64,000 bases of DNA from a virus, in IMG/VR virus record IMGVR_UViG_3300017991_000064, positions 1-64,000 of that record; one strand, 5' to 3'. Position 1 is the first letter of the stretch, and the number at the start of each line of letters is the position of its first letter. Below, piece by piece: positions 8,058 to 58,921 of the stretch. A model generated the notes under the pieces. That model did no database searches. It saw only the letters and a program-made list of their open reading frames with translations, and was not told the origin of the DNA. Position numbers and translations under genes: made by a program.

Positions 8058-8062
8058 ATGTG

Positions 8063-20888: not shown

Positions 20889-21338
20889 ATGGGCGAGGAA
20901 AAGAAAGCTACACTATTTCGGGACAACCTGACAATCACCACGCTGAGTAATTTCAGGGCTGGAGGACATCTTCTTCTTGGATTCTGGCAGAGTCACAGAG
21001 GTTTCTTCATGTCATTCAAAGGTGGGGCACCTGAGGATGATGTAGTTAATCCCACGAGCATTTATGTAGTAGGAGTCAATACCAGTCCTACAGGTGGACC
21101 AGAGATGCCACCTGAAGAGGTACTCACAGACCTGGTAGATAACTTCGAAATCATTAATGCTCTGAACATTGGTTCCACAGAATTCGAAAATCTATGGGTA
21201 CAGATAGATGAGGCAGTTGCCAAGCAGGAACATATGGCCGGGGTGGAACAAAACCTTCGAGATGAGCTCTGGTCACTTCGTACACCAGAGAATTATGAAG
21301 TGACCATGCTTAAAACAACTAAGGAGGAAGAGGAATGA
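20889..21338 (+). CDS. Hypothetical protein
   Basis: AGGAGG RBS before MGEEKK. Confidence 0.7.
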   Translation: MGEEKKATLFRDNLTITTLSNFRAGGHLLLGFWQSHRGFFMSFKGGAPEDDVVNPTSIYVVGVNTSPTGGPEMPPEEVLTDLVDNFEIINALNIGSTEFENLWVQIDEAVAKQEHMAGVEQNLRDELWSLRTPENYEVTMLKTTKEEEE

Positions 21339-21667
21339 CGCAGGCACAGATGATCAGAATGATGATCAACAATGATCTCAGAGCTGGTAGGATTCTTTTG
21401 ACTGATGGATTTGAGAAGGAGTACAAGCACAGAAAGGAGGTGGTTGACAGATTCTTCAAGGGTATTATGAAATGTCTTCGGATGGGTGAAAAGGTTGTGA
21501 TACCAGGATTCGGTACCTTCGAGATTAAAACATTGGGGGAACAGAAGTACTTCGATCTCAACTCTGCCAAACCCAGAATGAGAACAATAGGCCGGAGGAA
21601 ACATCCTAGGTTCCGTCCCTCTGATGTTCTCGTTAAAAGAATTCGGACAAAGGGAAAGAGGAGGTAA
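21335..21667 (+). CDS. HU/IHF-family DNA-binding protein
   Basis: GEKVVIPGFGTFEIK...PRFRPS. Confidence 0.85.
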   Translation: MTQAQMIRMMINNDLRAGRILLTDGFEKEYKHRKEVVDRFFKGIMKCLRMGEKVVIPGFGTFEIKTLGEQKYFDLNSAKPRMRTIGRRKHPRFRPSDVLVKRIRTKGKRR

Positions 21668-30359: not shown

Positions 30360-31373
30360 ATGTCAAAGAGCAAGAAGAAGAAGGGAAAGAAGAAGGGAAA
30401 CTCCGCTTATGAAAGAGCAATGGGAGCTTACCAGAAACTCAGAGAGCAGGGTAAGGGAAGATATAAAGAGGTACTGAAGAGTCTTCCTGTTGGGTCTACT
30501 TATCTGAAGATCGGAGACTGGAATGAAGCATCCTGCGGTTTCTACGAGTACCTTCCTTTCCATCAAGTAAAACAAGGTTCCAAAGAGTTTCCTCAGCTCT
30601 GTCAGAGTTTTTTCGAAGAAGAATGTGTTCAGTGTGAAGAGGGTAATACTAATACCAGAACAAAGTATGCTGTGATTGCCCTAGTGAAAAACAAGAAGCT
30701 GGGTTTGAATTTCGATAAACCTAGGCTTGTCCTCCTGACTCAGAAAGCTATGGTTCAGCTTAACACTCTTTTCTTCGGTGGAGATGAGGAAGATGATGAC
30801 GATGATCTTGACAAGCTCTACGACTTTGATGAGTACATCAATACTGAACGCAAGAGCAAGATCATTAAGATCACTAGAGTTGGAGAGAAGAAAAACGATA
30901 CTACCTATACGGTAAAACCGATTGACGACAAGATGCAGACCTTTGACAAGGAAGCCATCGAACTCCTCCAGGAATGGATCAATAACAGTGATGAAAAGCT
31001 CGAAGCTCTGTATAGAGTAACTGATGACGATACAGAGGATGATGACGATGAAGATGAGGGAAAGAAGAAAAAGTCGAAGAAGAAACCAAAGAAGGGAAAG
31101 AAGAAAGTAAAAGATGAAGAGGACGACGACGATGAGGACCTCGATGATCTTGTTGATGATGAGGGTGATGATGACGACGACCCGGATGAAGAAGAAGATC
31201 TAGACGAGGATGATGATGACGACGAGGATGAAGAGGAGGAAAAGCCTAAAAGCAAGAGGAAGAAGTCAAAGAAATCCAAGGACAAGAAGAAGTCAAAAAA
31301 GAAGAAACGCAACAAGGTAGATGAGGATGACGACGATGATGAAGACGATGATGACATCGATTTGGAGGATTAA
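30360..31373 (+). CDS. Single-stranded DNA-binding protein (gp32-like) with long acidic/basic tail
   Basis: H...C...CVQC Zn site, IKITRVGEKKNDTTYTV, position after RecA, acidic C-terminus. Confidence 0.75.
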   Translation: MSKSKKKKGKKKGNSAYERAMGAYQKLREQGKGRYKEVLKSLPVGSTYLKIGDWNEASCGFYEYLPFHQVKQGSKEFPQLCQSFFEEECVQCEEGNTNTRTKYAVIALVKNKKLGLNFDKPRLVLLTQKAMVQLNTLFFGGDEEDDDDDLDKLYDFDEYINTERKSKIIKITRVGEKKNDTTYTVKPIDDKMQTFDKEAIELLQEWINNSDEKLEALYRVTDDDTEDDDDEDEGKKKKSKKKPKKGKKKVKDEEDDDDEDLDDLVDDEGDDDDDPDEEEDLDEDDDDDEDEEEEKPKSKRKKSKKSKDKKKSKKKKRNKVDEDDDDDEDDDDIDLED

Positions 31374-31375
31374 GC

Positions 31376-32107
31376 ATGAGGTTGTTTGATAATACTAATG
31401 AACTCATTAGCGAAATCCTTCGAGACTTCCATGAGATTGCAACAACCAACGACCAGGTAATAACTAAAAGTTTCCAGAACCAGGTGGGGTCTTTTGAAAC
31501 CAAGGAACTCTTCAACTACTTCTACTCCTTGTTAAGTTTTGAGGATATCAAAGAAATCTTTCTCTTTGATGCTAGAAACCTAGCATACTGTGAGCAGGAG
31601 TTCAAAGACAGGTTATGTGAATGCCTCAACCCGGGAGAGTCATACAAACTTCGTCCAGATGTCTGGAAACCATTCCTTAATGCTGATGGTCTCAATGGCA
31701 GATTCGATTATACCTACTCTGAAAGAATCGGTGGTACCAGAGTGGGTCATATCATCAGAACATTGAGCAATGATTCTGGAAGTAGACAAGCATTCCTTCC
31801 CATCTTCTGGCAAACAGATATGATCTTTACTGGTGGTGCTCAAAGGATCCCATGTTCTCTGGGTTATCAGTTTAACATCAGGCAAGGTAAACTCCATCTC
31901 ACGTACCTGCAGAGAAGTTGTGACTTTGTGACCCACTGGGCGAATGATGTTTACATGGCCTGGAAGATGTTAGAGTTCGTAGCTGAACAACTCCAGGTTC
32001 CCGTGGGTTACTTCCATCACATGATCATATCTTTCCATATCTACAAAACGGACGTGGAAAGATTCCAAGAAGCATACTACACACTCATTGGTCAACAACA
32101 GAGCTGA
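31376..32107 (+). CDS. Thymidylate-synthase-fold enzyme, predicted dCMP (hydroxy)methylase
   Basis: SRQA, RIPCS catalytic Cys, QRSCDFVTHWAND with Asp at the base-specificity position, SFHIY. Confidence 0.75.
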   Translation: MRLFDNTNELISEILRDFHEIATTNDQVITKSFQNQVGSFETKELFNYFYSLLSFEDIKEIFLFDARNLAYCEQEFKDRLCECLNPGESYKLRPDVWKPFLNADGLNGRFDYTYSERIGGTRVGHIIRTLSNDSGSRQAFLPIFWQTDMIFTGGAQRIPCSLGYQFNIRQGKLHLTYLQRSCDFVTHWANDVYMAWKMLEFVAEQLQVPVGYFHHMIISFHIYKTDVERFQEAYYTLIGQQQS

Positions 32108-32156
32108 TACAATATGAGTAAAACTAAAGACAACACAAGGGGAGGCAAATAATAAG

Positions 32157-32531
32157 ATGGGAAAGAGCAAAAAGATCAATACCAGATCCACTCCCAGTAC
32201 TTATGTAGTAAGTGCTAAGCTCATGCCAATTGATGGCCAGTATGCTAAAACTAAGCTAACAGGCATGGAGTTTATGGATCGAATCAAAGAGTTACTCGAC
32301 AATGATATAGAGGTCGAGTTCTTTATAGGACATGAGAACACACTTCAGTTCCTATCAGAACAGTTAGGAATAGATGATGAGGTCATACAAAAGAAAGGCC
32401 GAAAGGTACGACTAAGGAGTGGAGATACAATGTTTGTCATCACTCTGAATAAGCACCACGAGTCTAAGGATGATCCCATTGAGAAGTATGATTACTCAGT
32501 GATCACATTCACAGCACCAAAGAACAAATAA
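32157..32531 (+). CDS. AcrIII-1-like ring nuclease (DUF1874 / STIV B116 / YddF family)
   Basis: FFIGHENTLQFLSEQLGI with the catalytic GH motif, DGQYAKTKLT, R..LRSGD..FVITL; 124 aa. Confidence 0.75.
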   Translation: MGKSKKINTRSTPSTYVVSAKLMPIDGQYAKTKLTGMEFMDRIKELLDNDIEVEFFIGHENTLQFLSEQLGIDDEVIQKKGRKVRLRSGDTMFVITLNKHHESKDDPIEKYDYSVITFTAPKNK

Positions 32532-32622
32532 CCCAAGCATTCGGCATCCTGGGGGATGATTCAACTTGGCTCTAGCGGGATCATCTCTCATGGGTGTTGT
32601 TTGCCTAATAAGGAGGTGTATT

Positions 32623-33321
32623 ATTGATTACAGAGATATGACCAAGGTGGTTGATAAGGAACTTAGAGATGGACTCAAACTAACCTTTGACTTTCTTTTT
32701 CAACGATCGGTAGCAATGCTAGAGGACTACAAACAAATTGAGAAGTGGCCAAGGACCTTGGAGAAGATGTCAATATCATCCAACCATAAACAAAAGATTG
32801 TGAAAGAATGCATCTATCGAGTCTTCGAAGAATTATGTGAAGCTACCGCAGAAGAAGAAAACAGTGGTAAATTTACTGAAGAGCTAGCTGATGCCTCATT
32901 GTTCTTCATGGAGATGTTAGTTATTCTTGGTTTTAATACCACTGAGAGTCTGGTAGAGTTAGTCGCTAAGCGATCTGAATTTTACCTGCATGAATCTGAT
33001 CCTGACGATGAAGAGATAACTCCAGAGAATTTTGTAGAGTCTATGCGTTACTACTATCATATGGCAGTAGACCCAACCTGTGAGTTTTCTTCTAGTGCTT
33101 TTGAAATGCTAAGTCTCCTCGGTAGGTTTGGAAATGCATTGAAGAACAGACCCTGGAGACAAACAAAAGTACTAACGGATGAAAGCAAAGCATTGACTCT
33201 ATTAGCAGATTCTATTCTAACCTTCTTTGGTTTCATAAGGTTGTTCGGGGGAGTAGATATTCTGAAGTTCATCTACATGAAACAGAAGGTTAACGAGTTC
33301 AGAATCAGATCAAACTATTAA
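32623..33321 (+). CDS. All-alpha dNTP pyrophosphatase (dCTPase/dUTPase, MazG fold)
   Basis: EELCEA...EELADASLFF, LKNRPWRQT, KQKVNEFRIRSNY; start uncertain (ATT 32623 or ATG 32638). Confidence 0.75.
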   Translation: MDYRDMTKVVDKELRDGLKLTFDFLFQRSVAMLEDYKQIEKWPRTLEKMSISSNHKQKIVKECIYRVFEELCEATAEEENSGKFTEELADASLFFMEMLVILGFNTTESLVELVAKRSEFYLHESDPDDEEITPENFVESMRYYYHMAVDPTCEFSSSAFEMLSLLGRFGNALKNRPWRQTKVLTDESKALTLLADSILTFFGFIRLFGGVDILKFIYMKQKVNEFRIRSNY

Positions 33322-33331
33322 ATTAAACTGT

Positions 33332-33419
33332 GCAGAGATGGTGGAACTGGAATACGCAGCAGACTTAGGATCTGCCTCCCACATTGGGAATGGGGGTTCG
33401 ACTCCCCCTCTCTGCACCA
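33332..33419 (+). tRNA. tRNA-Leu (UAG)
   Basis: GCAGAGA/TCTCTGC acceptor, GCAGA-CTTAGGA-TCTGC anticodon arm, long variable arm, encoded CCA. Confidence 0.95.
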
Positions 33420-33442
33420 TTTATTAGAAGGAGATTAAAGTT

Positions 33443-34150
33443 ATGTTTCTTATTTGGAGCGGACCAAGTGGATCAGGAAAAACACACAAGATCCAACAGA
33501 TTGAGGGGTGCAGAGTTGAAAAGTTTGATACCAGAGGTTGCTTAAAAACTAGATTCAACATCATATCTCTTTCTCAGTATCAGAAGATGATCATTTCAGA
33601 TACAGAAAATTTTCTGAAGATCCAGGAAGAAATCATGGAAGAAAGGTATCGAATTTTCAAACGATACATGGGGGAAACATACGAACATGAGCGAAACCGT
33701 GTTGTATTCGATCGTGGCCTGTTTGATAATCTGGTATACCTCCACGACTACAACATTCGTATCCAATCCAAGCTCAGTCTGATTGAACATACCAACAGTA
33801 GACTTCAAATCCTTCACATAATGAACAATCTACTTGCTAGAGCTTATAACCTCATCATCAAGCTTAATTCAGTATCTTATCACTTCATTTGCAAACCACA
33901 TCCTGACAATTTCAAAGACGGAGATTCCTTCAGAGATATTTCTTTTGAGGACTCTCTAAGACTCTTTAATCTGTACATCTATATGGCAGACACACATGGT
34001 ATTTCATATCAGATTCTGGAACGTGGTAATGAGGACCTTGAGATCCTACCTGAACCAACTAATGAGTTCATGAAGATTCATGATGCACTACGTGACGAGA
34101 TAGATATGAGAAAAGATATAGAAAGAAAAAGAAGGTTTAACATCGAATAA
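33443..34150 (+). CDS. P-loop nucleotide kinase (dNMP kinase-like)
   Basis: GPSGSGKT, VFDRGLFDNLVY, DGDSFR. Confidence 0.75.
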   Translation: MFLIWSGPSGSGKTHKIQQIEGCRVEKFDTRGCLKTRFNIISLSQYQKMIISDTENFLKIQEEIMEERYRIFKRYMGETYEHERNRVVFDRGLFDNLVYLHDYNIRIQSKLSLIEHTNSRLQILHIMNNLLARAYNLIIKLNSVSYHFICKPHPDNFKDGDSFRDISFEDSLRLFNLYIYMADTHGISYQILERGNEDLEILPEPTNEFMKIHDALRDEIDMRKDIERKRRFNIE

Positions 34151-34152
34151 AC

Positions 34153-36933
34153 ATGATTAAATACAAATTCAAAAAATCCATCTGCAAGCAGTGCTTAATG
34201 TATCCTGCTAACTTCAATCCTATTCGTGGTATAGGAAATCCTAAAGCAGACATCATGTTCATTGCTGAAACTCCCTCGAACGATGCGAAAGCTGTGAATG
34301 AAATCTTTTCGGGTCGTTCTTCACAATTCTTATTTGAGATCCTCTCAGAACTCTTCTCTATCCCTGTGGAGGATATCAAATCAAAACATTCTCCCTTCTA
34401 CTTCACAAACATCGTCAAATGTTATATTCCCAACAAATATGATGTTGAGGACAAAAAACTAAAAGACATTGCTGTCTCTTGTAGCGATTACGCTAAACAA
34501 GAGATAGAAGAAGTTGATCCTAAGATAGTTGTTCTACTAGGAAGAGCTGCTCTTAATGGTATCCTAGGTGGGGCTACAAAGGTAGAATCAAAAAGGGGTA
34601 GGATTCATACACAAGAGATCAACGAGAAAGAGTATAAGTTTGTACCTGTTTTTCACCAAAGCTACGTATTCAGAAACCCAAATGTACTTCAGATGTTTAT
34701 CAAAGATCTCGAGTTAATGAAGAGGTATGTAGATGGTGATCTGGAAAAAGAGGAATTAGATTACACCATGGTAGATAATAAGAAATCGTTTAACAAGATG
34801 ATAACCTTTCTTGAAAGAAAACAACCAGATCAATCATCCTGGGATGTAGAAACTAGTTCATTTGATTTTGCATCTGGGAAAGCTGTAATGCTCTTGGGTA
34901 TGTCATTCTACAATAGCGAACTGGATGAAGAGTATAATTTCATGCTTGACATAAAACGTTTTAAGTTTCGAAAAGGGTTAACAGCAGATAGAATCATACC
35001 AGTACTGTTAGATAGCATGGGTGGATACTGTAAGTATCTAATAGGTCAAAATTTTAAGTATGATATGAAACACCTCTTCAATTATGGTTTCCCCAAACGT
35101 GGACTCAAAAGCAAAATTTTAGATACTATGATAATGTCATATGTCCTGAATGAAGAAAGATTCGGAAGGTATGGTAAGCATTCATTAGAGAACCTATTGG
35201 GTTTCTACTTTCCAGAGGCGTTAGAATACAAGGTTTCCAAAGGTGAGGAAGCTAAAGAAGATCGAAAGAAACGAAATAAAGAACTCAGCAAGGAAGAGAA
35301 GAAACAAAAACAAAAGGAATCTAAGGTTGATGTGGATAAGGGAAACCCCTTTGATGACCCTGATTACTGTATGAACGATGCTATCTACACTGGACGGATA
35401 GCTAGGATCTTCCTTAAGGAGTTCGAAGAAAAGAAGAACAAGAAGCTACGAAGATTATACTTCAAACTATACGAACCGGCGTTGAAATTAATGACTCGGG
35501 TAGAGTATCGTGGAGCGAAGATAAATGTAAACTATCTCTTAGAATTAGATGAAAAGATGAGTGCAGAAAGAGATGACTACGAAAAGAAACTCCGAGGTTA
35601 CCTTTATCGTATTTTTGATGATAAGAAGTATGCTAAAGGAATTAACTTCAATTCGTCTCCACAGAAAAAGGTCCTCTGCTTTGAGAAGCTGAAGCTACCA
35701 ATAGTTCATTATACGAAGAGTAAGAAAAAAGGTGGAGGAAAGAAAAAGAAAAGTCCTAGTACAGGAAAGGATGCATTTGAAAAATGGGGTATCCTTCTGA
35801 ACAAGGGAGAGCTATTTCAGTGTTGTGATAGAAAGTATACGAAGGACCAAAGGAAGTATACAGCAAAGTTCATCAAGCTCTATAACAAATATAGTAGAGT
35901 TAAACATCTCCACAAGAACTTCGTCATTGGCATTCAGGTTCTTCTCGACAAGAATAATAGAATACATGGAACCTTCAAGCTCGTTGGAACAGTAACTGGG
36001 AGATTGAGTTCTGCTAGGCCAAATCTACAGAATATTCCCAGGACCACAACCAATAGCGAAATAAAGAAGTTATTCATTCCCAGTCATAAAAAATGGTACA
36101 TTGTTGAGGTGGACTACTCTCAAGCTGAATTAAGGGTCCTTGCCCACTTCTCTCAATCCAAAACTTTGATCGAAGCTTTCACACAGGGATTCGACATCCA
36201 TCTATTCGTAGCTTCAGAGATGTATGGTGTTCCATTTAAGGAAGCTGAAAAGATCTACTATAATAAAGACCTGGAAGGAACTGATTTACATATCAAATGG
36301 AAGAAGTGGAGAAAGAGAGCTAAAACGATAGTTTTCGGTATTGTCTATGGAGTTGGTCCAGATACACTAGCTGAGAACCTATCTGATCCTGATGTTGGAG
36401 AAATTGTTTCCAGAGAGGAAGCTATTGAGTTCATTGAGATGTTCTACAGAAAATTCCCTGAGATCAGAGATTACATTGAGCGTTGTATTAAATTTGTACG
36501 ACGACATAAGTACATCGATAATGTTCTTGGGAGACGAAGACACCTACCAAACATTAATAGTGAAGCTAAGAACCTAGCTGCCGAATCTGAAAGAAAAGCT
36601 GTTAATTCTCCGATACAGGCTACCGCCAGTGACTTTGCTTTGTTCTCAGCGGTCCTGATCGATAAGTATATTCATCGGTATAAACTAAGAGCCCATGAGT
36701 TTACTACCGTCCATGACTCTATCCTGTATGATGTACACCTTGATGACATCCTTAAGCTACATAAGATTGTAGATCATGTAATGCCTAATCCGCCACTTAA
36801 GAAATACTTTAAGTCAGAATTTACAGTTCCGCTAGACTATGGTATTGAGGTGGGCCCAGTCTGGGGAGAGATGTACGGTGATCTGAAGAAGTTTGTAGCT
36901 AAGGAAAAACAGAAATATAAAGAGATAGCATAG
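34153..36933 (+). CDS. polA: Family A DNA polymerase with N-terminal family-4 UDG-like domain and 3'-5' exonuclease
   Basis: FTNIVKC and LLGRAA (UDG); DVET and QNFKYD (exo); TVTGRLSS, DYSQAELR, RAKTIVFGIVYG, NSPIQ, TVHDS. Confidence 0.95.
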   Translation: MIKYKFKKSICKQCLMYPANFNPIRGIGNPKADIMFIAETPSNDAKAVNEIFSGRSSQFLFEILSELFSIPVEDIKSKHSPFYFTNIVKCYIPNKYDVEDKKLKDIAVSCSDYAKQEIEEVDPKIVVLLGRAALNGILGGATKVESKRGRIHTQEINEKEYKFVPVFHQSYVFRNPNVLQMFIKDLELMKRYVDGDLEKEELDYTMVDNKKSFNKMITFLERKQPDQSSWDVETSSFDFASGKAVMLLGMSFYNSELDEEYNFMLDIKRFKFRKGLTADRIIPVLLDSMGGYCKYLIGQNFKYDMKHLFNYGFPKRGLKSKILDTMIMSYVLNEERFGRYGKHSLENLLGFYFPEALEYKVSKGEEAKEDRKKRNKELSKEEKKQKQKESKVDVDKGNPFDDPDYCMNDAIYTGRIARIFLKEFEEKKNKKLRRLYFKLYEPALKLMTRVEYRGAKINVNYLLELDEKMSAERDDYEKKLRGYLYRIFDDKKYAKGINFNSSPQKKVLCFEKLKLPIVHYTKSKKKGGGKKKKSPSTGKDAFEKWGILLNKGELFQCCDRKYTKDQRKYTAKFIKLYNKYSRVKHLHKNFVIGIQVLLDKNNRIHGTFKLVGTVTGRLSSARPNLQNIPRTTTNSEIKKLFIPSHKKWYIVEVDYSQAELRVLAHFSQSKTLIEAFTQGFDIHLFVASEMYGVPFKEAEKIYYNKDLEGTDLHIKWKKWRKRAKTIVFGIVYGVGPDTLAENLSDPDVGEIVSREEAIEFIEMFYRKFPEIRDYIERCIKFVRRHKYIDNVLGRRRHLPNINSEAKNLAAESERKAVNSPIQATASDFALFSAVLIDKYIHRYKLRAHEFTTVHDSILYDVHLDDILKLHKIVDHVMPNPPLKKYFKSEFTVPLDYGIEVGPVWGEMYGDLKKFVAKEKQKYKEIA

Positions 36934-36942
36934 GAGGAACTC

Positions 36943-37704
36943 ATGCCTAAAACTAAAACTAAGGAAAAGAAAAAATCTACGAAGCGGAAGAAGAAGAAGG
37001 ATGAGGTAACTGAAGAACCAAAGAAGACTAAGAAGAAACGAGTTAGAAAGAAACCTACGAAGAAAGAAAAAGCCAAGAGGGCCAGAAGGTATAGAGAGCG
37101 GCGGCATACTCAGAAGGTTCAGGAAGAGATGACTCGTGAGTTAGAAAAGGGATCCATTGAATTAGAAGGAAAAATGGAATTCATTGAGAAAACCTTTGGA
37201 GTCAAAGATATAAAATTGGTGGCGTATCAATTCTATCAAACATTCTGCACATTAGCAGATGAAGAGGAACCTGAGGAAATATCTGAGATGGATGATGTAG
37301 CCACCAAGGGGAAGAAGAAAACAGTACAACTCTTCTCCCTCATCATGGCTCAGTTATTCAAATCTAAAACTACCGAGTTACTCCAGAGGGTAGAAAAAAC
37401 CATTAACCTTCAGGTTATTGATAACCTTGATGACCTTACTAAACTTCGCTATCATCGTAGCCTAACCAAAACCCGTTTGAAAGAAATCGAGCTTATTCTA
37501 GAGACTCTTATCAAAGTCATGAATCTACTGGATAGACGTACCCAAATGAAACAGGGGCAACTCCCTGGGGATCCCAGATTGTTAGGATACGATGGTAATC
37601 CAACCATAGTACCATTCAGGAAATCCAAGATAATACAAGCACTTATGGAGCCTGGTGTTAGTGATGCTAAACTAAAGAAAATTGAAAAAATCCTCGAGTG
37701 TTAA
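36943..37704 (+). CDS. Hypothetical protein, Lys-rich N-terminus
   Basis: 253 aa, AGGAGG RBS. Confidence 0.75.
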   Translation: MPKTKTKEKKKSTKRKKKKDEVTEEPKKTKKKRVRKKPTKKEKAKRARRYRERRHTQKVQEEMTRELEKGSIELEGKMEFIEKTFGVKDIKLVAYQFYQTFCTLADEEEPEEISEMDDVATKGKKKTVQLFSLIMAQLFKSKTTELLQRVEKTINLQVIDNLDDLTKLRYHRSLTKTRLKEIELILETLIKVMNLLDRRTQMKQGQLPGDPRLLGYDGNPTIVPFRKSKIIQALMEPGVSDAKLKKIEKILEC

Positions 37705-37849
37705 CCGTATGAGCAAGCCTTTTAATTTATGAAACCACCACATAAGAAGGCTATAGAAGGCATATAATAATAAATTGAAAGGAGGCATTAGTTTAATTAA
37801 ATAGGTTCATATATGAACCAAAACAAACTACCTTAACAGGAGGCAAAGA

Positions 37850-38536
37850 ATGGCTAAGAAGAAAGAGAAGAAGGAAACCGCAAAGAAGGCCAAGGGCAAG
37901 AAGGAGAACGCCAAGAAGATCAAAGGAAAGGACAAGAAGAAGAAGGACAAGAAGAAGTTCGAGAAGACCAGACTCAAGGATATCCATATCGAGGGTCTGA
38001 CAAAACGTGAAATCCGCCGTTCCTACAAGATCGTTGAAGCTGTTCTCCTGAAGCACATCCTCGAAGAGACAGAGTGCCCAGCACCCCTCGGCACCATGAA
38101 ACTCAAGGTGGGCAAACATCGCACCACGGGGGAACCGGTTCTCAGGATCAAATACAAATGGACCAAGAGTATCCGGAAGAGGGAATACTCCGAAGAAGAC
38201 CTCGAGAAACTGATCGAACAGCTCGGACTCGGAGAGATCCCAGAAGACATGGAAGAGGGAGATGAACCCAAGAGCAAGAAGAAGTCAAAGAAGAGCAAGA
38301 AATCCAAAAAGAAGGCCAAGGAAGAAGAGGACGAAGACGAAGATGATGATGACCTCGATATAGATGAAGAGGAGGACGAAGAGGAAGAGGAGGAGGAGAA
38401 ACCTAAGAAAAGCAAGAAGAAGAAGTCAAAGAAATCCAAAAAGTCAAAGAAGAAAGCCAAGGAAGAAGAGGACGAAGAGGAAGAAGAAGAGGGAGATGAT
38501 GATGATGACCTCGACCTCGACGACGATGACCTCTAA
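37850..38536 (+). CDS. HU-like nucleoid protein with Lys-rich and acidic low-complexity tails
   Basis: PLGTMKLKVGKHRTTGEPVLRIKYK resembles the HU beta-ribbon arm; AGGAGG RBS. Confidence 0.55.
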   Translation: MAKKKEKKETAKKAKGKKENAKKIKGKDKKKKDKKKFEKTRLKDIHIEGLTKREIRRSYKIVEAVLLKHILEETECPAPLGTMKLKVGKHRTTGEPVLRIKYKWTKSIRKREYSEEDLEKLIEQLGLGEIPEDMEEGDEPKSKKKSKKSKKSKKKAKEEEDEDEDDDDLDIDEEEDEEEEEEEKPKKSKKKKSKKSKKSKKKAKEEEDEEEEEEGDDDDDLDLDDDDL

Positions 38537-38564
38537 TCCATAATACTACACCAAGTACGAACAA

Positions 38565-38597
38565 GGAGGGGGCTCATTCAGTAGTCCCCTCTTTTTT
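38565..38597 (+). terminator. Rho-independent terminator
   Basis: GAGGGGGCT/AGTCCCCTC stem followed by a T-run. Confidence 0.8.
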
Positions 38598-38625
38598 ATG
38601 TAACCTACATTGGAGTTAATTAAAT

Positions 38626-39501
38626 ATGACCACACCCACCGCCTACACTGGAGACCTAGAGAAAGAGCTTCGTCGAAATAAGATCCTTCGCAAGAAGAAC
38701 CAGAATTATTATCTTAACTGCTCATTCTGTAGAGAACGGAATAAGAAACTACGAGTAAAGAAGATGCTACCATCAAACAGGTACATGTTTCATTGCTTCA
38801 AGTGTGATACCTCAGGAATCTTAGACTATCCTACACTCCAGGCACTTATAAGGTGGAATACTAAAACTTGGGATGCAAAGAAAAAGACTACCGACACAAA
38901 AGAAACCAAACCTTTCTACTCTGGGACCACAGAGAAATCATTTTTTCATCCACTGTTGATTGCATACTTAAAGAAAGATCGAAAGTTTACTAATCAAGAG
39001 ATTACCAGAATGGTTAATGCCTTTGGAATCTACTGGTGTGATGATGCAATCTACTTCACAAGCTTCTTCCGTGAGAAACCCATCTTCCTATTCAAAAAGA
39101 TACTGGGAAAGAAGGGATACCTCAATCAAACAGGATCCAAATTCCCCTTTAACTTCAATGCTGTATTCAACAACAGAGTCAACTATGTTATCCTTGTAGA
39201 AGGTGTTTTCGATGCTATTAGACTATGTGTTAATGGTTTCAATGCGATGGCTATGTTAGGAAAGAGTTTAGGAACACGGGGTCTATTAACATTTGAACGA
39301 TACATCTCTGATAAGCGTATCATCATTATGCTAGACGGAGATATCACAGATAATGAGGATAAGAAGTTGAAGGTGAAATTACAAAATCTATTACCCCGTA
39401 ATGAGATAAAACGTATTAGATTACCAGGGGGAGATCCAGATGAGTACTTCCAAGAAGAAAAACGAGTTCAGAAACTTCAAGGTATTATTAACTGTAAGTG
39501 A
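38626..39501 (+). CDS. DNA primase (Zn finger + TOPRIM)
   Basis: CSFC...CFKC, LVEGVFDA, MLDGD, DPDE. Confidence 0.9.
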   Translation: MTTPTAYTGDLEKELRRNKILRKKNQNYYLNCSFCRERNKKLRVKKMLPSNRYMFHCFKCDTSGILDYPTLQALIRWNTKTWDAKKKTTDTKETKPFYSGTTEKSFFHPLLIAYLKKDRKFTNQEITRMVNAFGIYWCDDAIYFTSFFREKPIFLFKKILGKKGYLNQTGSKFPFNFNAVFNNRVNYVILVEGVFDAIRLCVNGFNAMAMLGKSLGTRGLLTFERYISDKRIIIMLDGDITDNEDKKLKVKLQNLLPRNEIKRIRLPGGDPDEYFQEEKRVQKLQGIINCK

Positions 39502-40159
39502 ACTCCGTAGGTTCATTAAGAGACTCACCGGAGAGAGTGAACATACTGACCAAGAGATCTATGAAGCTATCATTACTTTCAAATCCAAAAGCCATAACCT
39601 GAAAGCTGGAAATATCAGTGGACACCTTATAGCTCAATTTTTTATAAAGTTATATGGGCACCTGTACGCTCTAAATAAGAATAGTAGTAGACGCGTAGTT
39701 AAATTTCTAAGGGAGCTCCAGTTGGATTTCCCAGATGTAGAAACCGAAGTTCTTCTAACAGCCTTTATTAAATTCATCAAGAGCAGATATAAAGGAAAAA
39801 CAAAACGACTCCCACAGGTTATCTCAAGTGTAAACAAAACTGCTTTCGTAGAGTACTATAAGTATAGTCGAAAATATTCGAAAGCTATAGACTATCTCCA
39901 GACACAAGATGTTATCGTAGACCATGACTCCCAAGGAGTAGAACTAGTAAAGAAGATTATCCAACTCTCAAAAGAATTTGGAATACCCAAGGCTGATAAA
40001 TTGTTTCTCAATATTGTCTCAGAGTTTATTACAAATGAGTATCAAGGTAAAGCATACTACTTCACAAGATACTGTTCTGTAGCTAACTTTATGCAATATG
40101 TTGAAGAAGAGAATAAGAAACGATACTACAGCATATTAAAACAGGCTCAGGGGGATTAA
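39440..40159 (+). CDS. Hypothetical protein (replication cluster)
   Basis: 239 aa between primase and helicase. Confidence 0.7.
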   Translation: MSTSKKKNEFRNFKVLLTVSELRRFIKRLTGESEHTDQEIYEAIITFKSKSHNLKAGNISGHLIAQFFIKLYGHLYALNKNSSRRVVKFLRELQLDFPDVETEVLLTAFIKFIKSRYKGKTKRLPQVISSVNKTAFVEYYKYSRKYSKAIDYLQTQDVIVDHDSQGVELVKKIIQLSKEFGIPKADKLFLNIVSEFITNEYQGKAYYFTRYCSVANFMQYVEEENKKRYYSILKQAQGD

Positions 40160-41598
40160 TGATTATACACTATAGACCTCGTGAAGAAAGGTCAGCCATT
40201 GAGATTGAATCTCTAGATGACATGAAATGGTACACTATTATTGAAAATCTTTTAACCATAGAAACACCAAAGAATCGATTATACTTCATTAATCAAAGAG
40301 CACGTGAAAAGGCTGCAAAGCGAAAACAAAAGTATGAAGACTGGGATGGCAAGAGATCCTTGCTCAAGAATGCTACCTTTCCCTCAGGTTTATTCTATCT
40401 CATCGTTAGAACACTAGACAAAGCAGGAGCAGAATTTGAAACTAATGTTGTACTACCTAAACACTGTCAGTACAAACTAAGGTTGAACAAAGAGTTCTGT
40501 AAAACATTAAGGCCTGCACAAAAGAAATCTGTTAATAAGATTCTAGCTCTTCATGAAAAATGGGGTTGGACTCGAAAGGTTCTAAACATACCCATAGGGA
40601 TTGGCAAGAGTTACATCCTAGCTAATTTCACAAAGATCTTTCCAGGAACCACATCGATTCTAGTAGTAGAGAGTAGATCCCTGTATGAACAGTATTTAGA
40701 GTACCCTGAGATAGTAGAATTAAACACAACTGGAGTTGTTCATGGAAAAGTTAATCTAACGATGGTAGACTTCTACAGAAAGAATTTCGAAGAGATTACT
40801 ACCATTGATATACACTTCTTACTGCTAGATGAAGTCCACCTAGAAGAAATCAAAGGTTCAGTAATGAAGTGGCCTGTGAAATATCTAATCTGCGGAATCA
40901 TAGGGTCAACAGCTACCCTACCTGATGATCGAGGAGAATTGTTACAGGTCATGTCTTATATTTCATCTAGTGTTTTCAAATTACGATACACAGATGCCTA
41001 CGAAAACCCCCCAAGGGTTCTAATCATAGAAAATAAGAAGGTTCACCCCGATTACATGCCTAGGATGAAATACGCTAAATTGTATACCCTCTGGGCTAAG
41101 GATCCTCATCGAAACAAAGGTTTACTCAGGTTGATTAGAATGTATCCAGAAAAGAAATTTGTGGTGATCTTTGAGAAAGTAACTAATCACCTTCTGCCTG
41201 TAGCAAAGTACCTTTCGAAGAAAGGCGTCTCTCTTAATATCATCTATGGCAAAGTGAAACCCAAAGAAAGAATGAAACGACAGCAAGACCTTAGAGATGA
41301 TAAGGTACAGGTCTCCTTAGTTTCCGGTGTTCTCAAGGCCGGTATAGATATTGATCAGGCAGATGTCCTGGTATTCTTCGCCCCATACTGTTCTAAAATT
41401 CCAGTAATACAATTCTCTGGGCGCATTATAAGGGGGGACGATGAATCAATCTCTAAGAAGCTTATCGTGGATTTTTATGACAGCAAGTATAAGCATTTCA
41501 GGACCCATGGAATAAAACGAAAAAGAATTTACCAGCAACAAGGTTGGAAAATTGAGAAGATGAATTTGGAGGATATGAACCAATTAAGACTATGGTAG
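40159..41598 (+). CDS. SF2 DNA helicase (UvsW-like)
   Basis: LRPAQ, PIGIGKS, LDEVH, TAT, GIDI, QFSGRIIR. Confidence 0.9.
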   Translation: MIIHYRPREERSAIEIESLDDMKWYTIIENLLTIETPKNRLYFINQRAREKAAKRKQKYEDWDGKRSLLKNATFPSGLFYLIVRTLDKAGAEFETNVVLPKHCQYKLRLNKEFCKTLRPAQKKSVNKILALHEKWGWTRKVLNIPIGIGKSYILANFTKIFPGTTSILVVESRSLYEQYLEYPEIVELNTTGVVHGKVNLTMVDFYRKNFEEITTIDIHFLLLDEVHLEEIKGSVMKWPVKYLICGIIGSTATLPDDRGELLQVMSYISSSVFKLRYTDAYENPPRVLIIENKKVHPDYMPRMKYAKLYTLWAKDPHRNKGLLRLIRMYPEKKFVVIFEKVTNHLLPVAKYLSKKGVSLNIIYGKVKPKERMKRQQDLRDDKVQVSLVSGVLKAGIDIDQADVLVFFAPYCSKIPVIQFSGRIIRGDDESISKKLIVDFYDSKYKHFRTHGIKRKRIYQQQGWKIEKMNLEDMNQLRLW

Positions 41599-41661
41599 AA
41601 TATAGTGATATTAAGCCTTTTAATAATAAATCCATTAAATCGAACCTAGAGAGGGTGAAAC

Positions 41662-42201
41662 ATGAAAGTATACTTGTATAGAATCCTAAACCTACCACGA
41701 AAGAAGTTTAATGAGTTTATCTACTCTATCAAACTCAGAAAGATAGGGCTGATAATTGCTAACTCAGATTCCTATCCTTACTTCTACTCAACTGTCGGTA
41801 GAAATGAGATTCTAAAACAAAAAGAGAAATGGGGGTTTTACTTTAAGCTCAAACGGATGAGGAAGGTAGATATCTCTCATGCCCAGATTTGGTTTAGGTC
41901 AATGCATCTTATTAGTGCAGGAGTAGAGTCAAATATATTACCTAAGGTAGTAATGAAAGCACTAGAAATACCCCTAAAGAGCCACGTTCTAATTACATTA
42001 AATGATCAAGCAGAATATGTAGGAGCTTTAATGCAAGTAGCTAGCAATAGTCTTACATTAGAACTGATAGGAGAAGAGGGTATTCATCTTGTTATACCCT
42101 ACAGAAGAATCATAGAACTATCAGTAGCACCAAAACAATTTGCTAAGAAGCTTGAAGAAACCCAAGCTAGACTTAGATACCTCAACGAAAATAAGGAGTA
42201 A
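41662..42201 (+). CDS. Hypothetical protein, possible Sm-like C-terminal domain
   Basis: VLITLNDQAEYVGAL...LVIPYRRIIEL. Confidence 0.55.
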   Translation: MKVYLYRILNLPRKKFNEFIYSIKLRKIGLIIANSDSYPYFYSTVGRNEILKQKEKWGFYFKLKRMRKVDISHAQIWFRSMHLISAGVESNILPKVVMKALEIPLKSHVLITLNDQAEYVGALMQVASNSLTLELIGEEGIHLVIPYRRIIELSVAPKQFAKKLEETQARLRYLNENKE

Positions 42202-42210
42202 TAGAACTCA

Positions 42211-43506
42211 ATGGAAGAAGTTAAACTTATCGTTGTGCTATTTTTGCTGATGCGAAGAAAGATTAAGGTCAGTCAGTACATCAGCAAGATTAGATTACTA
42301 CCAACCGAAATTCTCACAACAGAGTTCATAGAAAGTCTTCGAAAGAGTAATGCTAGGAAATTTCATGATCTCAAAACAAAATTCCTGGAGTACTATTCAA
42401 CCTGGGAATGGTACGATGATGAACTAGAAGTGAACTATGTAATAGTTAAAATGCGGAAGATGTACAAGAAGTACAGAAAACATTCCGATGATTACTTGCT
42501 TACCTTCGTAAAAGAAAAGTTCCAATCTTTAATTATCAACCATACTAACCAACAATTGCTAGAAGGTCATGATCTGGATAGACGATTCCAAATCCTTGAG
42601 CAGGGACATTCTTTAATCAAAGAATTTCGTGATGAGAAAAGAGCTAGGCAATCTCTAGACCTCAGTGATATGGAGCAGGTTAAAGCCTATGAAAAAGAAC
42701 TTAAGAGTAGGAAAGAAGAGATAGACTTCCGCATCAAAACTAAGTGGCCTACTCTGGATCAATACTTCTCTAATGGAACAGATCTTGGCTTAGCTTGTAG
42801 AAGGATCGTACTGTTATTCGGTATTGCTAAACGTTTCAAAACAACACTCATGTACAATGCTGCCCTAAGAGCTTATCACCAAGGATACAATGTTAGATTC
42901 TATACCCTGGAGATGTCTCTCGAAGATATCTTTGAGAAGAGCAAACTCATTGTTAATCCCATCGCGTTAGCCAAGGTAAAGAAAGATAAGGGAAGAAACA
43001 ACTTCTTCAAGGTCGAATACTATCCATCATACACCTTTGGTTTATCTAATCTTAACCAGGATCTTCAGAATGATAAGGATAAAGGGAATCCCACACATTG
43101 GGTTGGTATAGATTACATTGAGGTTATGTTTCATCGATTATTCACTACCCTTCGAAATTCGAGTGATAAGAGATTTGGAATTAATCAGCTCTACTACGGG
43201 CTCAGAGACTCAGTTAACTATTACAACTACATGCTCTGGACTATTTCACAGGCTAACAGAGGAGCAGTTAAGAAGAAAGGGAAGGCTGCAGAAAGTGGAG
43301 ATATCGCAGAAGATTGGTCTAAGGTGGCTGCTATCGATTACCTTCTCTCAACAAACCAAACACCTGACCAGAGAAAAGCCAGGATCATTATGTTAAAACT
43401 TCTAGAGTCTAGGTGGACAGATTGGGATAAACTCAAAACAGATGAGCTTTTCCTAAAGTATAAATCACCAACCCTTCTCTTCAAAGAGATTGTATCAAAA
43501 TTATAG
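42211..43506 (+). CDS. DnaB-like replicative helicase
   Basis: GIAKRFKT, TLEMS, IDYIEVM, SQANR, DIAED. Confidence 0.85.
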   Translation: MEEVKLIVVLFLLMRRKIKVSQYISKIRLLPTEILTTEFIESLRKSNARKFHDLKTKFLEYYSTWEWYDDELEVNYVIVKMRKMYKKYRKHSDDYLLTFVKEKFQSLIINHTNQQLLEGHDLDRRFQILEQGHSLIKEFRDEKRARQSLDLSDMEQVKAYEKELKSRKEEIDFRIKTKWPTLDQYFSNGTDLGLACRRIVLLFGIAKRFKTTLMYNAALRAYHQGYNVRFYTLEMSLEDIFEKSKLIVNPIALAKVKKDKGRNNFFKVEYYPSYTFGLSNLNQDLQNDKDKGNPTHWVGIDYIEVMFHRLFTTLRNSSDKRFGINQLYYGLRDSVNYYNYMLWTISQANRGAVKKKGKAAESGDIAEDWSKVAAIDYLLSTNQTPDQRKARIIMLKLLESRWTDWDKLKTDELFLKYKSPTLLFKEIVSKL

Positions 43507-43518
43507 GAGTTAATTTCT

Positions 43519-44538
43519 ATGGACTCGGTAAAAAATCAAGGAGTATTCATTGTAGGAGACATGCATGTTGAGATTACTCAATATGCTTTCAGGGGTAGAA
43601 TCGTAGAAATGATGCAGAAGATTAAAGAACATGAGTGTAAGAGTGTGATATGTCTGGGAGATTTCTTCAACTCCTGGCTACTTAATAACGATTCGCTCCA
43701 GATGTTCAGCTACTATATAAAGATGATGAGTAGGGTAGTTGACCATATCTCATTCATTCAGGGTAACCACGAACTACCTAAAACAAAAGAATTCACACCG
43801 ATCTTTGAAGTAATGCATACCTTGTTCCCCCAAATGAGCACTACTCTAACCTGGCATACTACACCTAGTTCTACATTCTCACACCCCAACCATAACCTTT
43901 ACATTATACCATTTTCTAAAGAATTAGACTACAACTTTCTAGAGAAGCAAGTAAAGGGTAGAATCGTTCTAGGGCATTTTGATATTAAACAAATTCGAAG
44001 AATTAGAAAGATGTCACCAAAGTATATTATCAGTGGACACTACCATACTCCCCAGAAGTTCAAGGGAGGAATGATTCTTGGTAGTTATGTTCCTATAGAA
44101 TTTGATCGGGACTACGAAGGAAAGAACTATTACGCTGTAATTAAACCGGATAACAAAATTAAGATCCGCTCATTTGAACATCAGATACAACAGAAGATTG
44201 TAGAGGTTAATGATAACGATGATGTAAAGGATCTCCTAAAAGAGCAGAAGAAACAAAAGAAGCGAGAAAAAAGAACACCCCGTGAGTTGGTTAAGGTGAT
44301 AGTTACTTCTAAGTCAGTTTCTCATGATGCTCTTAGTAGATTACTTTCTGAGAATGGATGCTCTAGAATTGAGTTTGATACCAGTGCTGAGATATTTCCA
44401 GAAGGTACCATACAAGAATTATACGAGAAATTTCTAGTCGACAAAGACCTCTTAATGAAAGTGAATCCAGGTCTTTATAGTGCTGTGATTTCTTCATTAG
44501 AACAATATGTAGATCCGGATGAGAATGATGATGACTGA
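43519..44538 (+). CDS. SbcD/Mre11 (gp47-like) nuclease
   Basis: GDMH, LGDFF, GNHE, GHF, SGHYH metallophosphoesterase motifs. Confidence 0.88.
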   Translation: MDSVKNQGVFIVGDMHVEITQYAFRGRIVEMMQKIKEHECKSVICLGDFFNSWLLNNDSLQMFSYYIKMMSRVVDHISFIQGNHELPKTKEFTPIFEVMHTLFPQMSTTLTWHTTPSSTFSHPNHNLYIIPFSKELDYNFLEKQVKGRIVLGHFDIKQIRRIRKMSPKYIISGHYHTPQKFKGGMILGSYVPIEFDRDYEGKNYYAVIKPDNKIKIRSFEHQIQQKIVEVNDNDDVKDLLKEQKKQKKREKRTPRELVKVIVTSKSVSHDALSRLLSENGCSRIEFDTSAEIFPEGTIQELYEKFLVDKDLLMKVNPGLYSAVISSLEQYVDPDENDDD

Positions 44539-45262
44539 GAGAATCAAGGGAGATCCCTACGCTAAAAAGTATAAAGTACGATTATCTCCAAAACAGGTGG
44601 CAGATATTGCATCGCAGTATAAGGAGAGAAAGAATATCCACCATGTTTCAAAACTATTGATTGAGGCCTATCATTTCTTTCTGTTAAAATGGGCTCGATA
44701 TTATGCTAACAAATTTCAAGGAGATGCTGCTATGTCTATAGAAGATTTTATGCAGGAGGGAAGAATAGCTCTTATACTAGCCCTAGAGAAATTTAATCCC
44801 GAGAAGGGAGCTTTTACCACAATAGCCTACTACTATGTTCGGAGGAAAATGAAAAGATTCCTTCAACAGAATGGTCGTAAAGAACACTATAAACGAAGTA
44901 AAGTTTATCAGAAAACCATTATCCCCATGAAGTTTGATGAAATTGATTTTATTAACTTTCCCGCTAGCTACGAAGCAGACAGTTTTGAACAGATTGAAAC
45001 CAAAGTAGACCAGGAAAATTTGTTAAGAGTAGGATTCTCAATCCTAACCAAGAGTGAAAGATATCTAGTAGAAAAATACTTCTTTGAAAACAAATCTCTT
45101 AAAGAGTTAGCATATATTTATGGAGTAACCAAAGAGGCGATTAGGCAAAGAAAGATAGTTATCTTAAACAAACTAAGAGAAAGAATCCAGGAGGTGTATC
45201 CAGATGAACAAGGAATTGAGGGAAGGATTGCAACAGAGAAGAAGAAAAAACGTACTAACTGA
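44519..45262 (+). CDS. Sigma70-family RNA polymerase sigma factor
   Basis: EDFMQEGRIALILALEKFNPEKGAFTTIAYYYVR (region 2), SLKELAYIYGVTKEAIRQ (region 4). Confidence 0.92.
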   Translation: MRMMMTERIKGDPYAKKYKVRLSPKQVADIASQYKERKNIHHVSKLLIEAYHFFLLKWARYYANKFQGDAAMSIEDFMQEGRIALILALEKFNPEKGAFTTIAYYYVRRKMKRFLQQNGRKEHYKRSKVYQKTIIPMKFDEIDFINFPASYEADSFEQIETKVDQENLLRVGFSILTKSERYLVEKYFFENKSLKELAYIYGVTKEAIRQRKIVILNKLRERIQEVYPDEQGIEGRIATEKKKKRTN

Positions 45263-51090: not shown

Positions 51091-51768
51091 ATGTACGAAA
51101 ATATAGAAATGATTCCGCAAGATGTCAGGATCATCGAACAGCCCGTACTAAAGAATATCAGAAACTCGGAGTTTGTAGCTAGGTTATCACACCGCTCGGA
51201 AGAAAGAATCTCCGACGATTCTTACGTGGCTCTCATGGATAAAATGACACGTTTGAACCACCAGGCAGCCTTTGAGTTCATGGATATGACCGTAATGTTT
51301 ACTACGAACCGTGGAGTATCCCATGAACTTGTCCGACATCGCCTATGTTCCTTCCTGCAAGAGAGTACGAGATACATCAATTTCGACAAGAAGATGAAGG
51401 GTAAGATTCCTATTATCCGCGGGGATTACCCAATGTATATGTTAAAGATTCTGGATGACATAGCATATACATACAAGAAGATGGTTAACGAAGGTATCCC
51501 ACCACAGAAAGCAAGAGATATCCTACCAATGTCATTGGCTACCAGGATAGCTGTTAAAACCAATCTTAGAGAATGGGCATATTTATTCCACATGAGATTA
51601 TTCAACAAGAAAGCTCATCCTCAGTTTAGAGAGTTGATGTCAATGCTATTGAATAAGCTAGTAAACAAACCAGCCTGGTATCCGGTAGTAAACTGCCTAC
51701 TTCAGAATACCTATGGATACACAGAAGAACAAATCGAAGATGCAAGGGGGGTCTGTCTCAATGAGTAA
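51091..51768 (+). CDS. thyX: Flavin-dependent thymidylate synthase
   Basis: HQAAFE, RGVSHELVRHRLCSFLQESTRY (RHRX7S), AR.ILP, NLREW, AHPQ. Confidence 0.95.
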   Translation: MYENIEMIPQDVRIIEQPVLKNIRNSEFVARLSHRSEERISDDSYVALMDKMTRLNHQAAFEFMDMTVMFTTNRGVSHELVRHRLCSFLQESTRYINFDKKMKGKIPIIRGDYPMYMLKILDDIAYTYKKMVNEGIPPQKARDILPMSLATRIAVKTNLREWAYLFHMRLFNKKAHPQFRELMSMLLNKLVNKPAWYPVVNCLLQNTYGYTEEQIEDARGVCLNE

Positions 51769-58414: not shown

Positions 58415-58921
58415 TTAGATCTGTTCATCATCCGGTAGGAAAACATTTTCAATTGCTGAAATGGAGGCCTCGATTCGTGAAGCCATAGATTGGGCCTTGT
58501 CCATCATCTGTTCTCCGTTAGTGATTAGATCAAGAGCATTCATTATTCTTTTATGAACCTCACCCATATGAGCATTCTTAGGAATAATGGTAATACAATT
58601 TCTACCTCGTAGTTCCTCGAGTATGAAACTTTCTGAAACACAAGTGTAAATAACAACTGGGGTGGTTACTCCGGAGTCACGAAGTTCAATGAGAAAATCC
58701 AAGCCAGCTCTACTGTTACCATTGATTCGGATATCGAGCACCAGAAGATCATGTGTCTGAACTTTCATACACTCTCTTGCAGTGAGAACATCCATTGCCC
58801 AATCTACCTGGAGCTTTGCATAATCATCTGGTACTATTTCCTCCAGATATCTTGTCCAGATTCTTCTCATAATGTGTTCATCTTCCATGAATAGGATACG
58901 ATATTTTCCATCCTTTGTCAT
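58415..58921 (-). CDS. Response regulator receiver-domain protein
   Basis: RILFMEDE, DLLVLDI (phospho-Asp), GLDFL, PVVIYT, IIPK. Confidence 0.88.
   Translation of the reverse strand: MTKDGKYRILFMEDEHIMRRIWTRYLEEIVPDDYAKLQVDWAMDVLTARECMKVQTHDLLVLDIRINGNSRAGLDFLIELRDSGVTTPVVIYTCVSESFILEELRGRNCITIIPKNAHMGEVHKRIMNALDLITNGEQMMDKAQSMASRIEASISAIENVFLPDDEQI

Follow-up and report, generated by a model that had tools for sequence, protein, structure and literature searches.

The gene cluster at positions 31376–36933 of the virus record IMGVR_UViG_3300017991_000064 is read here, with a probability of about 0.65, as a pre-replicative cytosine C5-modification module. The logic of the T4 enzymes gp42, gp56 and gp1 would be carried out in it by non-orthologous or very divergent parts, beside a flavin-dependent thymidylate synthase (ThyX) and an SPO1-like family-A DNA polymerase (PolA) fused to a uracil-DNA glycosylase (UDG) domain. 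The reading holds up computationally on the combination of Asp177, a non-His residue at 147, Ser167 and Arg126 (E. coli ThyA numbering) in the central enzyme, on cytosine-specific nearest folds, on synteny in relatives, on a weak link to T4 gene 56 and on the co-occurrence of ThyX with the same enzyme type in the phage genome MW202455. The window analysed is the first 64 kb of the 106,874-bp record, which is rated 100% complete and has a G+C content of 40.9%. Folds, residue identities, clade position and synteny were obtained directly; from these we infer every activity and the modified state of the virion DNA. The features concerned are the following:

31376–32107, + strand: thymidylate synthase (TS)-fold enzyme P0001, 243 aa, predicted to modify C5 of dCMP (Pfam, AlphaFold2, Foldseek, hhalign, tree)
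32157–32531, + strand: STIV_B116-like (DUF1874) open reading frame (ORF), 124 aa (Pfam PF08960, E 2.9e-6, 27.8 bits vs a cut-off of 26)
32638–33321, + strand: all-alpha NTP pyrophosphatase of dimeric-dUTPase fold, likely ATG start, ORF open from TTG at 32566 (PHROG 12184, motifs, VIA-align)
33332–33419, + strand: tRNA-Leu, anticodon TAG (ARAGORN)
33443–34150, + strand: P-loop protein P0034, similar to nucleoside monophosphate (NMP) kinases, AAA_28 / NadR-Ttd14 type (Pfam AAA_28, Walker A)
34153–36933, + strand: SPO1-like UDG + 3'-5' exonuclease + PolA, 926 aa (Pfam UDG, DNA_pol_A_exo1, DNA_pol_A)
51091–51768, + strand: ThyX, flavin-dependent thymidylate synthase (PF02511, RHR..S....S.RY motif)

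An earlier note on this DNA, made from the letters alone, had described the run of TS-fold gene, pyrophosphatase, tRNA-Leu, P-loop protein and PolA, and the run was recovered with Pfam, PHROG and ARAGORN.

P0001, the sequence of which includes RSCDFVTHWAND, matches Pfam Thymidylat_synt (PF00303; E 2.6e-13, 50.2 bits vs a cut-off of 24.3), the match being confined to its C-terminal half. The NCBIfam TS models gave 24–63 bits against cut-offs of 108–427, all equivalogs lying far below; the best of them was the archaeal thymidylate synthase model (63 bits vs 174.55). An AlphaFold2 model built on 32 homologues (predicted local distance difference test, pLDDT, 93) was compared with the PDB by Foldseek, and the top match was the CMP hydroxymethylase MilA (E 5e-16, template-modelling score 0.73), accompanied at the top by the dCMP hydroxylase AfhB of phage HY126 (9iqc/9iqu) and followed by ThyA structures, with E values to TS-fold chains from 5e-16 to 1e-11. 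The PDB sequence search agreed, its best match being the 5-hydroxy-dCMP synthase (9iqc/9iqu, E 1e-10). Fold, profile score, catalytic Cys and the phosphate- and sugar-binding residues place P0001 in the TS/dCMP hydroxymethylase superfamily.

The residue register was set by hhalign of the P0001 family profile against E. coli ThyA (probability 97.6%), together with a MAFFT table containing reference enzymes from phage records. In the hhalign register Arg157 of P0001 corresponds to Leu143 of ThyA, Cys160 to Cys146, Ser161 to His147, Arg180/Ser181 to Arg166/Ser167, Asp183 to Asp169, His187 to Gly173, Asp191 to Asn177 and His221 to His207; Arg137 and Tyr223 correspond to Arg126' and Tyr209. In E. 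coli numbering, Cys146, Arg166, Ser167, Asp169, Arg126, His207 and Tyr209 are thus retained, and four positions are changed (at 177 Asp replaces Asn, at 147 Ser replaces His, at 143 Arg replaces Leu and at 173 His replaces Gly). Because hhalign fixes the register, the Asp that the earlier note had seen in the place of the ThyA Asn is real. The diagnostic positions compare as follows:

ThyA: Leu143, His147, Asp169, Gly173, Asn177
Xp12: Asn143, Pro147, Asp169, Gly173, Asp177
T4 gp42: Asp143, Thr147, Asp169, Gly173, Asp177
SPO1 gp29: Asp143, Asn147, Asp169, Gly173, Asn177
RB69 gp48: Glu143, Thr147, Asn169, Val173, Asp177
P0001 clade: Arg143, Ser/Thr147, Asp169, His173, Asp177

According to the literature, N177D switches TS-fold enzymes to dCMP, an acidic residue at 143 accompanies hydroxymethylation and D169N marks the flavin-dependent 5-hydroxy-dCMP synthases (PMC13326640); of all residues, those at 177 and 147 show the strongest association with cytosine-modified contigs, in which Asp177 and a non-His residue at 147 are enriched (PMC8670742); and Ser167 together with Arg126' selects deoxyribose (PMC5175136). 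Against these determinants the kept and changed residues make P0001 read as dCMP-specific and probably pterin-dependent: the enzyme would probably act on dCMP rather than on dUMP, with a cofactor of the pterin type, and Ser167 and Arg126 speak for deoxyribose as the sugar of the substrate. No characterised enzyme has Arg143 and His173, which is why the product is called neither as 5-methylcytosine (5mC) nor as 5-hydroxymethylcytosine (5hmC).

The same two residues define a clade. Thirty-one metagenomic homologues of P0001 (≤45% identity) share invariant Arg143, Pro145, Cys146, Arg166, Ser167, Asp169, His173, Asp177 and His207, as do gp46 of Mycobacterium phage Muddy and the "ThyA" of Clostridium perfringens phage P21; Asp177 with Ser/Thr147 is likewise invariant, and position 209 varies between Tyr and Phe. 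The Arg143/His173/Asp177 signature is carried by Muddy gp46, by MW202455 and by the "ThyA" of P21 and its relatives CPD4, CP3 and CPAS-15. In the maximum-likelihood tree 34 clade sequences stand apart from all seven characterised references with a support of 96/97; Xp12 and PaMx74 group with ThyA, as sister to ThyA/td. The phylogenetic check proposed in the earlier note separated the enzyme from ThyA/td, and from gp42 and every other reference as well. A relative is present on >576 IMG/VR contigs. Neither a literature search (Muddy, C. perfringens phages, dCMP methylases) for a paper characterising a clade member, nor motif searches of paper supplements with experimentally tested TS homologues for such a member, gave a result.

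Membership of P0001 in the gp42, Xp12, 5-hydroxy-dCMP synthase and MilA groups was considered and rejected. A canonical ThyA is contradicted by Asp191 and Ser161 in place of Asn177 and His147 and by the NCBIfam scores below their cut-offs. T4 gp42 has the TS fold, catalytic Cys, Asp177, Ser167 and Arg126 in common with P0001, but differs in clade (96/97) and in having Asp instead of Arg at 143 and Gly instead of His at 173, which speaks against a dCMP hydroxymethylase of gp42 type. The Xp12-type dCMP methyltransferases, including that of PaMx74, fall into a separate group together with ThyA; they have Asn143, Pro147 and Gly173 where P0001 has Arg, Ser and His. The 5-hydroxy-dCMP synthases (RB69 gp48, DLP3 gp80, HY126 AfhB; length ~235 aa) resemble P0001 in shortness and in Asp177, but their Glu at 143 is Arg in P0001 and their diagnostic D169N is absent, Asp183 being kept and invariant, and flavin-dependent hydroxylation is therefore not predicted. 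MilA and BcmA share the cytosine-specific Asp; P0001 has Ser181 and Arg137 in place of the Ala (for Ser167) and Lys (for Arg126') that give these CMP hydroxymethylases their ribose preference, and it lies in a phage replication context rather than a biosynthetic gene cluster.

The earlier note placed the cluster in a "PolA rather than PolB" phage. This is not new, Asp177 TS homologues being paired with PolA already in Xp12, PaMx74 and MetaGPA modified contigs (preprint 10.1101/2024.12.05.627091). Neither the pathway type nor cytosine replacement in PolA phages is new; the novelty lies in the enzyme clade with the Arg143/His173 signature. A phage that replaces cytosine before replication protects its DNA from restriction enzymes and from some CRISPR nucleases, and the replacement also confounds sequencing and phage engineering. 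Clade members are routinely annotated as "thymidylate synthase", including those of the therapeutic mycobacteriophage Muddy and of C. perfringens phages that have been put forward for biocontrol. Should the clade modify cytosine, these annotations are wrong and the DNA chemistry of those phages would still have to be established; the residue rules by which dT, 5mC, 5hmC and 5-hydroxycytosine (5hoC) are predicted would then need a further class. Since isolates of the clade exist, the question is directly testable.

The neighbourhood of the gene was examined in the best 80 of the >576 IMG/VR contigs, over 8 kb around the TS homologue. A pyrophosphatase homologue and PolA are encoded on the same strand within ≤8 kb of it at 79 of the 80 loci, in the order (helicase), pyrophosphatase, TS, PolA on one strand, an association beyond chance. 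A neighbourhood of TS, PRA-PH, PolA and exonuclease has been described for modified contigs (preprint 10.1101/2024.12.05.627091), and the match of the relatives to it is counted as support for cytosine modification. A typical 85-kb relative encodes a trimeric dUTPase-family protein, the pyrophosphatase, a 334-aa protein, the TS-like enzyme and a PolA without a UDG domain. In most relatives a conserved 250–335-aa protein, the 334-aa one among them, is encoded immediately upstream of the TS-like gene. This protein appears to be a further TS-fold paralogue, a very divergent one: when it was compared with the TS family by hhalign (E 3e-4, probability 40%), its Cys, the Arg of its Arg-Ser pair and the residue at position 177 (Asp) fell into register, and an ESM Atlas lead also points to the TS fold. 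Examples are Muddy gp47 (locus 5033–5926), the "pyrimidine hmase synthase" of MW202455 (locus 7372–8142) and a protein of an IMG/VR relative (locus 6799–7803). No such second paralogue was found anywhere in the present 107-kb genome. The low-complexity protein (30360–31373) directly upstream of P0001 was considered as a counterpart and is unrelated. One 163,683-bp IMG/VR record holds two TS-like copies ~87.7 kb apart (at 1579 and 89295) and is probably a concatemer of a ~87-kb genome, not a larger phage.

Among known arrangements the one most similar to that in the window is an operon in the region 33000–44049 of MW202455.1, a 44-kb circular Myoviridae sp. genome, in which TMP kinase, NTP-PPase, ThyX, a second TS-fold gene, the TS-like gene, ligase and UDG-PolA follow one another. 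ThyX and this TS type accordingly occur together in at least two phages, the present one and the unrelated MW202455, which argues against redundancy of the two. In Muddy (NC_022054) the Asp177 TS-like gp46 lies next to PolA and is flanked by gp48 and by gp45. For the latter, a hypothetical protein by annotation, a match to the dCMP deaminase family was obtained (E 4e-20), and a gene of this family adjoins the TS gene in two IMG/VR relatives too, a resemblance to Xp12-type loci. In those loci a deaminase turns 5-methyl-dCTP into dTTP (preprint 10.1101/2024.12.05.627091), and a deaminase-bearing relative that could do the same would need no true TS.

For the pyrophosphatase (32638–33321) no match was obtained with Pfam, with the PDB sequence search or, at a significant level, with Foldseek of its AlphaFold2 model (pLDDT 86). 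It matches PHROG 12184 (E 3e-16), carries acidic metal motifs of the ExxE/ExxD type and a C-terminal K..N..R, and shares the invariant motifs R..EE..E, EE.AD..F, N..KN.PW and K.N..R....Y with 13 homologues. With VIA-align the best matches of the model were two dimeric dUTPases (1w2y, Z 10.7 over 158 residues; 5myd, Z 10.3; alignments over 140–158 residues), followed by unrelated helical bundles at Z ≤8.4. The family profile weakly matches the Campylobacter dimeric dUTPase 1w2y (E 0.05); in the whole T4 genome it matches gene 56 (dCTPase/dUTPase) only (E 5.6e-4, hhalign probability 76%), and in Muddy it matches gp48, annotated as "dUTPase" (E 5e-16). Fold and motifs are those of the dimeric dUTPase / gp56 dCTPase superfamily, and the protein is a candidate gp56-like dCTPase/dUTPase as judged from motifs and model.

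P0034 has the Walker A motif GPSGSGKT and matches Pfam AAA_28 (E 6e-10); a PDB sequence search gave no match. Its look-alikes in the ESM Atlas are viral AAA_28 clusters, some of them with cytidylate, thymidylate and deoxynucleoside kinase families, and a function as a (modified) dNMP kinase is plausible.

The 34153–36933 protein has the three domains and the UDG motifs of the SPO1-like UDG-fused PolAs. Its UDG domain is of family 4 (match to 4zbx, E 3e-21); in it all four Fe-S cysteines are conserved, as are Glu and His in the two motifs, AETPS standing for GE[AG]PG and FHQSY for HPS/HPA. The nearest isolate polymerases are those of the Bacillus phages CP-51, JL and Shanette (CP-51/JL 29–34% identical) and of MW202455, the last being the closest full-length match. 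ThyX matches PF02511 with E 2e-31 and contains the motif RHRLCSFLQESTRY, which bears out the complete ThyX claimed at 51091; its TIGR02170 score (78.9 bits) lies just below the cut-off of 87.9.

The polymerase brings in a reading in which P0001 is a dUMP hydroxymethylase and thymine is partly or fully replaced by 5-hydroxymethyluracil as in SPO1, the UDG-PolA being adapted to T-modified DNA. A link of UDG-PolA families with T-modified genomes has been described (PMC13697223), the present polymerase equals the SPO1-like ones in architecture, size, Fe-S cysteines and motif Glu and His, and an enzyme of dUTPase fold would provide dUMP. In SPO1-type phages, however, the replacement of thymine by 5-hydroxymethyluracil is made with an Asn177 enzyme (gp29), whereas the TS partner here is of cytosine type with Asp at 177; the dTMP made by a complete ThyX would be in competition, and no dTTPase or 5-hmdU DNA kinase/transferase was recognised. 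We regard this reading as very improbable. The oligonucleotide composition also bears on it: TTTAAA does not occur (0 vs 35 ± 5.8 expected in the window, and vs 28.6 in the 107-kb genome), although T modification could protect this site. Avoidance is not seen for 4-mers that contain C, for instance GGCC and CCGG, and CpG is depleted (odds 0.51). The absence of TTTAAA suggests restriction pressure of the DraI/AhaIII type that is covered by no base modification of the phage; together with the tolerated C sites it is weak evidence that fits protection of C-containing sites only.

The whole genome was further searched for dCMP deaminase, trimeric dUTPase, canonical MazG (PF03819), GT1/GT2 glycosyltransferase and C5 DNA methyltransferase, none of which was found; the earlier note, too, had seen no glycosyltransferase in the window. 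The DUF1599-like, HD-like, HAD and second MazG genes, named there as candidate accessory enzymes, received no Pfam support among the ~75 window ORFs scanned.

As a system, the cluster resembles T4 gp42/gp56/gp1 in combining an all-alpha dCTPase-like pyrophosphatase with a candidate nucleotide kinase, so that dCTP would be depleted, dCMP modified and the product re-phosphorylated. Unlike in T4, the candidate kinase is of AAA_28 and not of gp1 type, PolA with UDG stands in place of PolB, and a glucosyltransferase is absent. The 5mC phages Xp12 and PaMx74 and the MetaGPA contigs offer a second likeness, in that their Asp177 TS homologue has a pyrophosphatase of MazG/PRA-PH type and an exonuclease-bearing family-A polymerase as neighbours; in contrast to Xp12 and PaMx74, the present phage has no deaminase and has ThyX for dTMP instead.

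The following course is proposed. The pyrophosphatase would hydrolyse dCTP, and probably dUTP too, to the monophosphate, by which canonical dCTP would be drained and dCMP and dUMP supplied. Cys160 of P0001 would then attack C6 of dCMP, with Asp191 reading and protonating the N3/N4 edge of cytosine and Ser181 and Arg137' selecting deoxyribose; a one-carbon unit from methylene-tetrahydrofolate would be put on C5, since Asp183 keeps the pterin-type cofactor site. The modified dCMP would be raised to the triphosphate by the P-loop kinase and host NDP kinase and incorporated by the UDG-exonuclease-PolA, which would also remove uracil. ThyX would independently make dTMP from dUMP. If dCMP is the substrate, a 5-methyl product comes closest, at a little under an even chance, ahead of 5-hydroxymethyl (three chances in ten) and of something else (one in four). 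The Arg143/His173 pair is invariant in the clade and lies near C5. We hold it unlikely, yet worth stating, that the clade catalyses C5 chemistry on dCMP other than methylation, hydroxymethylation or hydroxylation, for example with a nucleophile, bound by the Arg/His pair, trapping the exocyclic methylene intermediate; an undescribed cytosine derivative would then be present in Muddy, in the C. perfringens phages and in hundreds of gut-virome phages, and the adjacent TS-fold paralogue would take part in the work in most relatives.

A C5-modified (deoxy)cytidine nucleotide, if P0001 makes one, might also serve other ends than bulk replacement in DNA, as a signalling or inhibitory nucleotide or in partial, low-level modification. 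The closest solved fold, MilA, comes from a nucleoside-antibiotic pathway, the genome holds no deaminase or tailoring enzymes and the kinase is without an assigned substrate; against this, Ser167 and Arg126 favour deoxyribose over ribose, and linkage of the gene with a replicative PolA and a dNTP pyrophosphatase is close and widespread. This use of the product appears quite improbable.

Several observations weigh against the cytosine-modification module, and a number of them are claimed by its main rival, according to which P0001 is a divergent thymidylate synthase (dUMP to dTMP) in a dTTP-supply operon of dUTPase, TS and thymidylate kinase that would serve the polymerase and be redundant with ThyX in this phage. 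ThyX was not found in 30 relatives (12 of them ≥90% complete) or in Muddy and P21; the TS-like gene is the sole PF00303 gene in 11 of the 12 near-complete relatives, Muddy has no other TS and P21 likewise only this TS type, which could therefore be their dTMP source. The dimeric dUTPase fold of the pyrophosphatase would suit a plain dUTPase just as well, genes for dUTPase-family proteins, thymidylate kinase and dCMP deaminase co-occur in relatives, the archaeal thymidylate synthase model is the best NCBIfam match, and in the Gordonia CT phages this set of genes was taken by annotators for a "thymine synthesis" operon (PMC10353413). Other difficulties are independent of this rival. The methyl and the hydroxymethyl signatures are both at odds with Arg143/His173; apart from this clade, position 173 has a side chain in a flavin-dependent hydroxylase (Val, RB69 gp48), which makes folate use less certain; P0034 has no sequence relatives in 5.8e9 proteins, nor at E ≤0.001 in 1.8e9 representatives; the SPO1-like UDG-PolA is a known class, best known from thymine-modified phages (PMC13697223); and the genome search turned up no tailoring enzyme such as a deaminase or glycosyltransferase.

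A divergent thymidylate synthase is nevertheless considered rather unlikely. Asp177 and Ser/Thr147 are invariant throughout the clade, which is split from ThyA/td with a support of 96/97; the equivalog scores are 63 bits vs 174.55 for the archaeal model and ≤36 vs ≥325 for further TS models; ThyX is present beside the enzyme in two unrelated phages; and the deaminase-bearing relatives could obtain dTTP from 5-methyl-dCTP as Xp12-type phages do. Cytosine modification thus remains the preferred reading. That ThyX makes dTMP while the cluster modifies cytosine, as the earlier note had it, is favoured by the dCMP-type residues, the folds and the synteny; homology to gp42 or Xp12 in the narrow sense was not borne out, and the choice of "5mC or 5hmC" goes beyond what the Arg143/His173 clade allows.

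The cluster is part of a replication module on the + strand at 27–54 kb of the window, which includes ThyX and of which the further members are:

within 27–54 kb, + strand: 5'-3' exonuclease
29347, + strand: RecA/UvsX-like protein
30360–31373, + strand: low-complexity 337-aa protein with long Lys-rich and Asp/Glu-rich runs (no family match)
elsewhere in the module, + strand: primase, helicases, Mre11/SbcC-like genes, sigma factor and pyrimidine-dimer glycosylase

The STIV_B116-like ORF, which the earlier note does not mention, separates the TS-fold gene from the pyrophosphatase, has no evident role in the pathway and has no homologue in the 80 related loci. A nucleotide search of a phage collection with this DNA returned tRNA-like matches only. 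Elsewhere in the window a DnaJ-domain protein (13220–13903, − strand), an HU-like DNA-binding protein (21335–21667, + strand), a sigma-70-type factor (44519–45262, + strand) and a stand-alone response-regulator receiver domain protein (58415–58921, − strand) are encoded.

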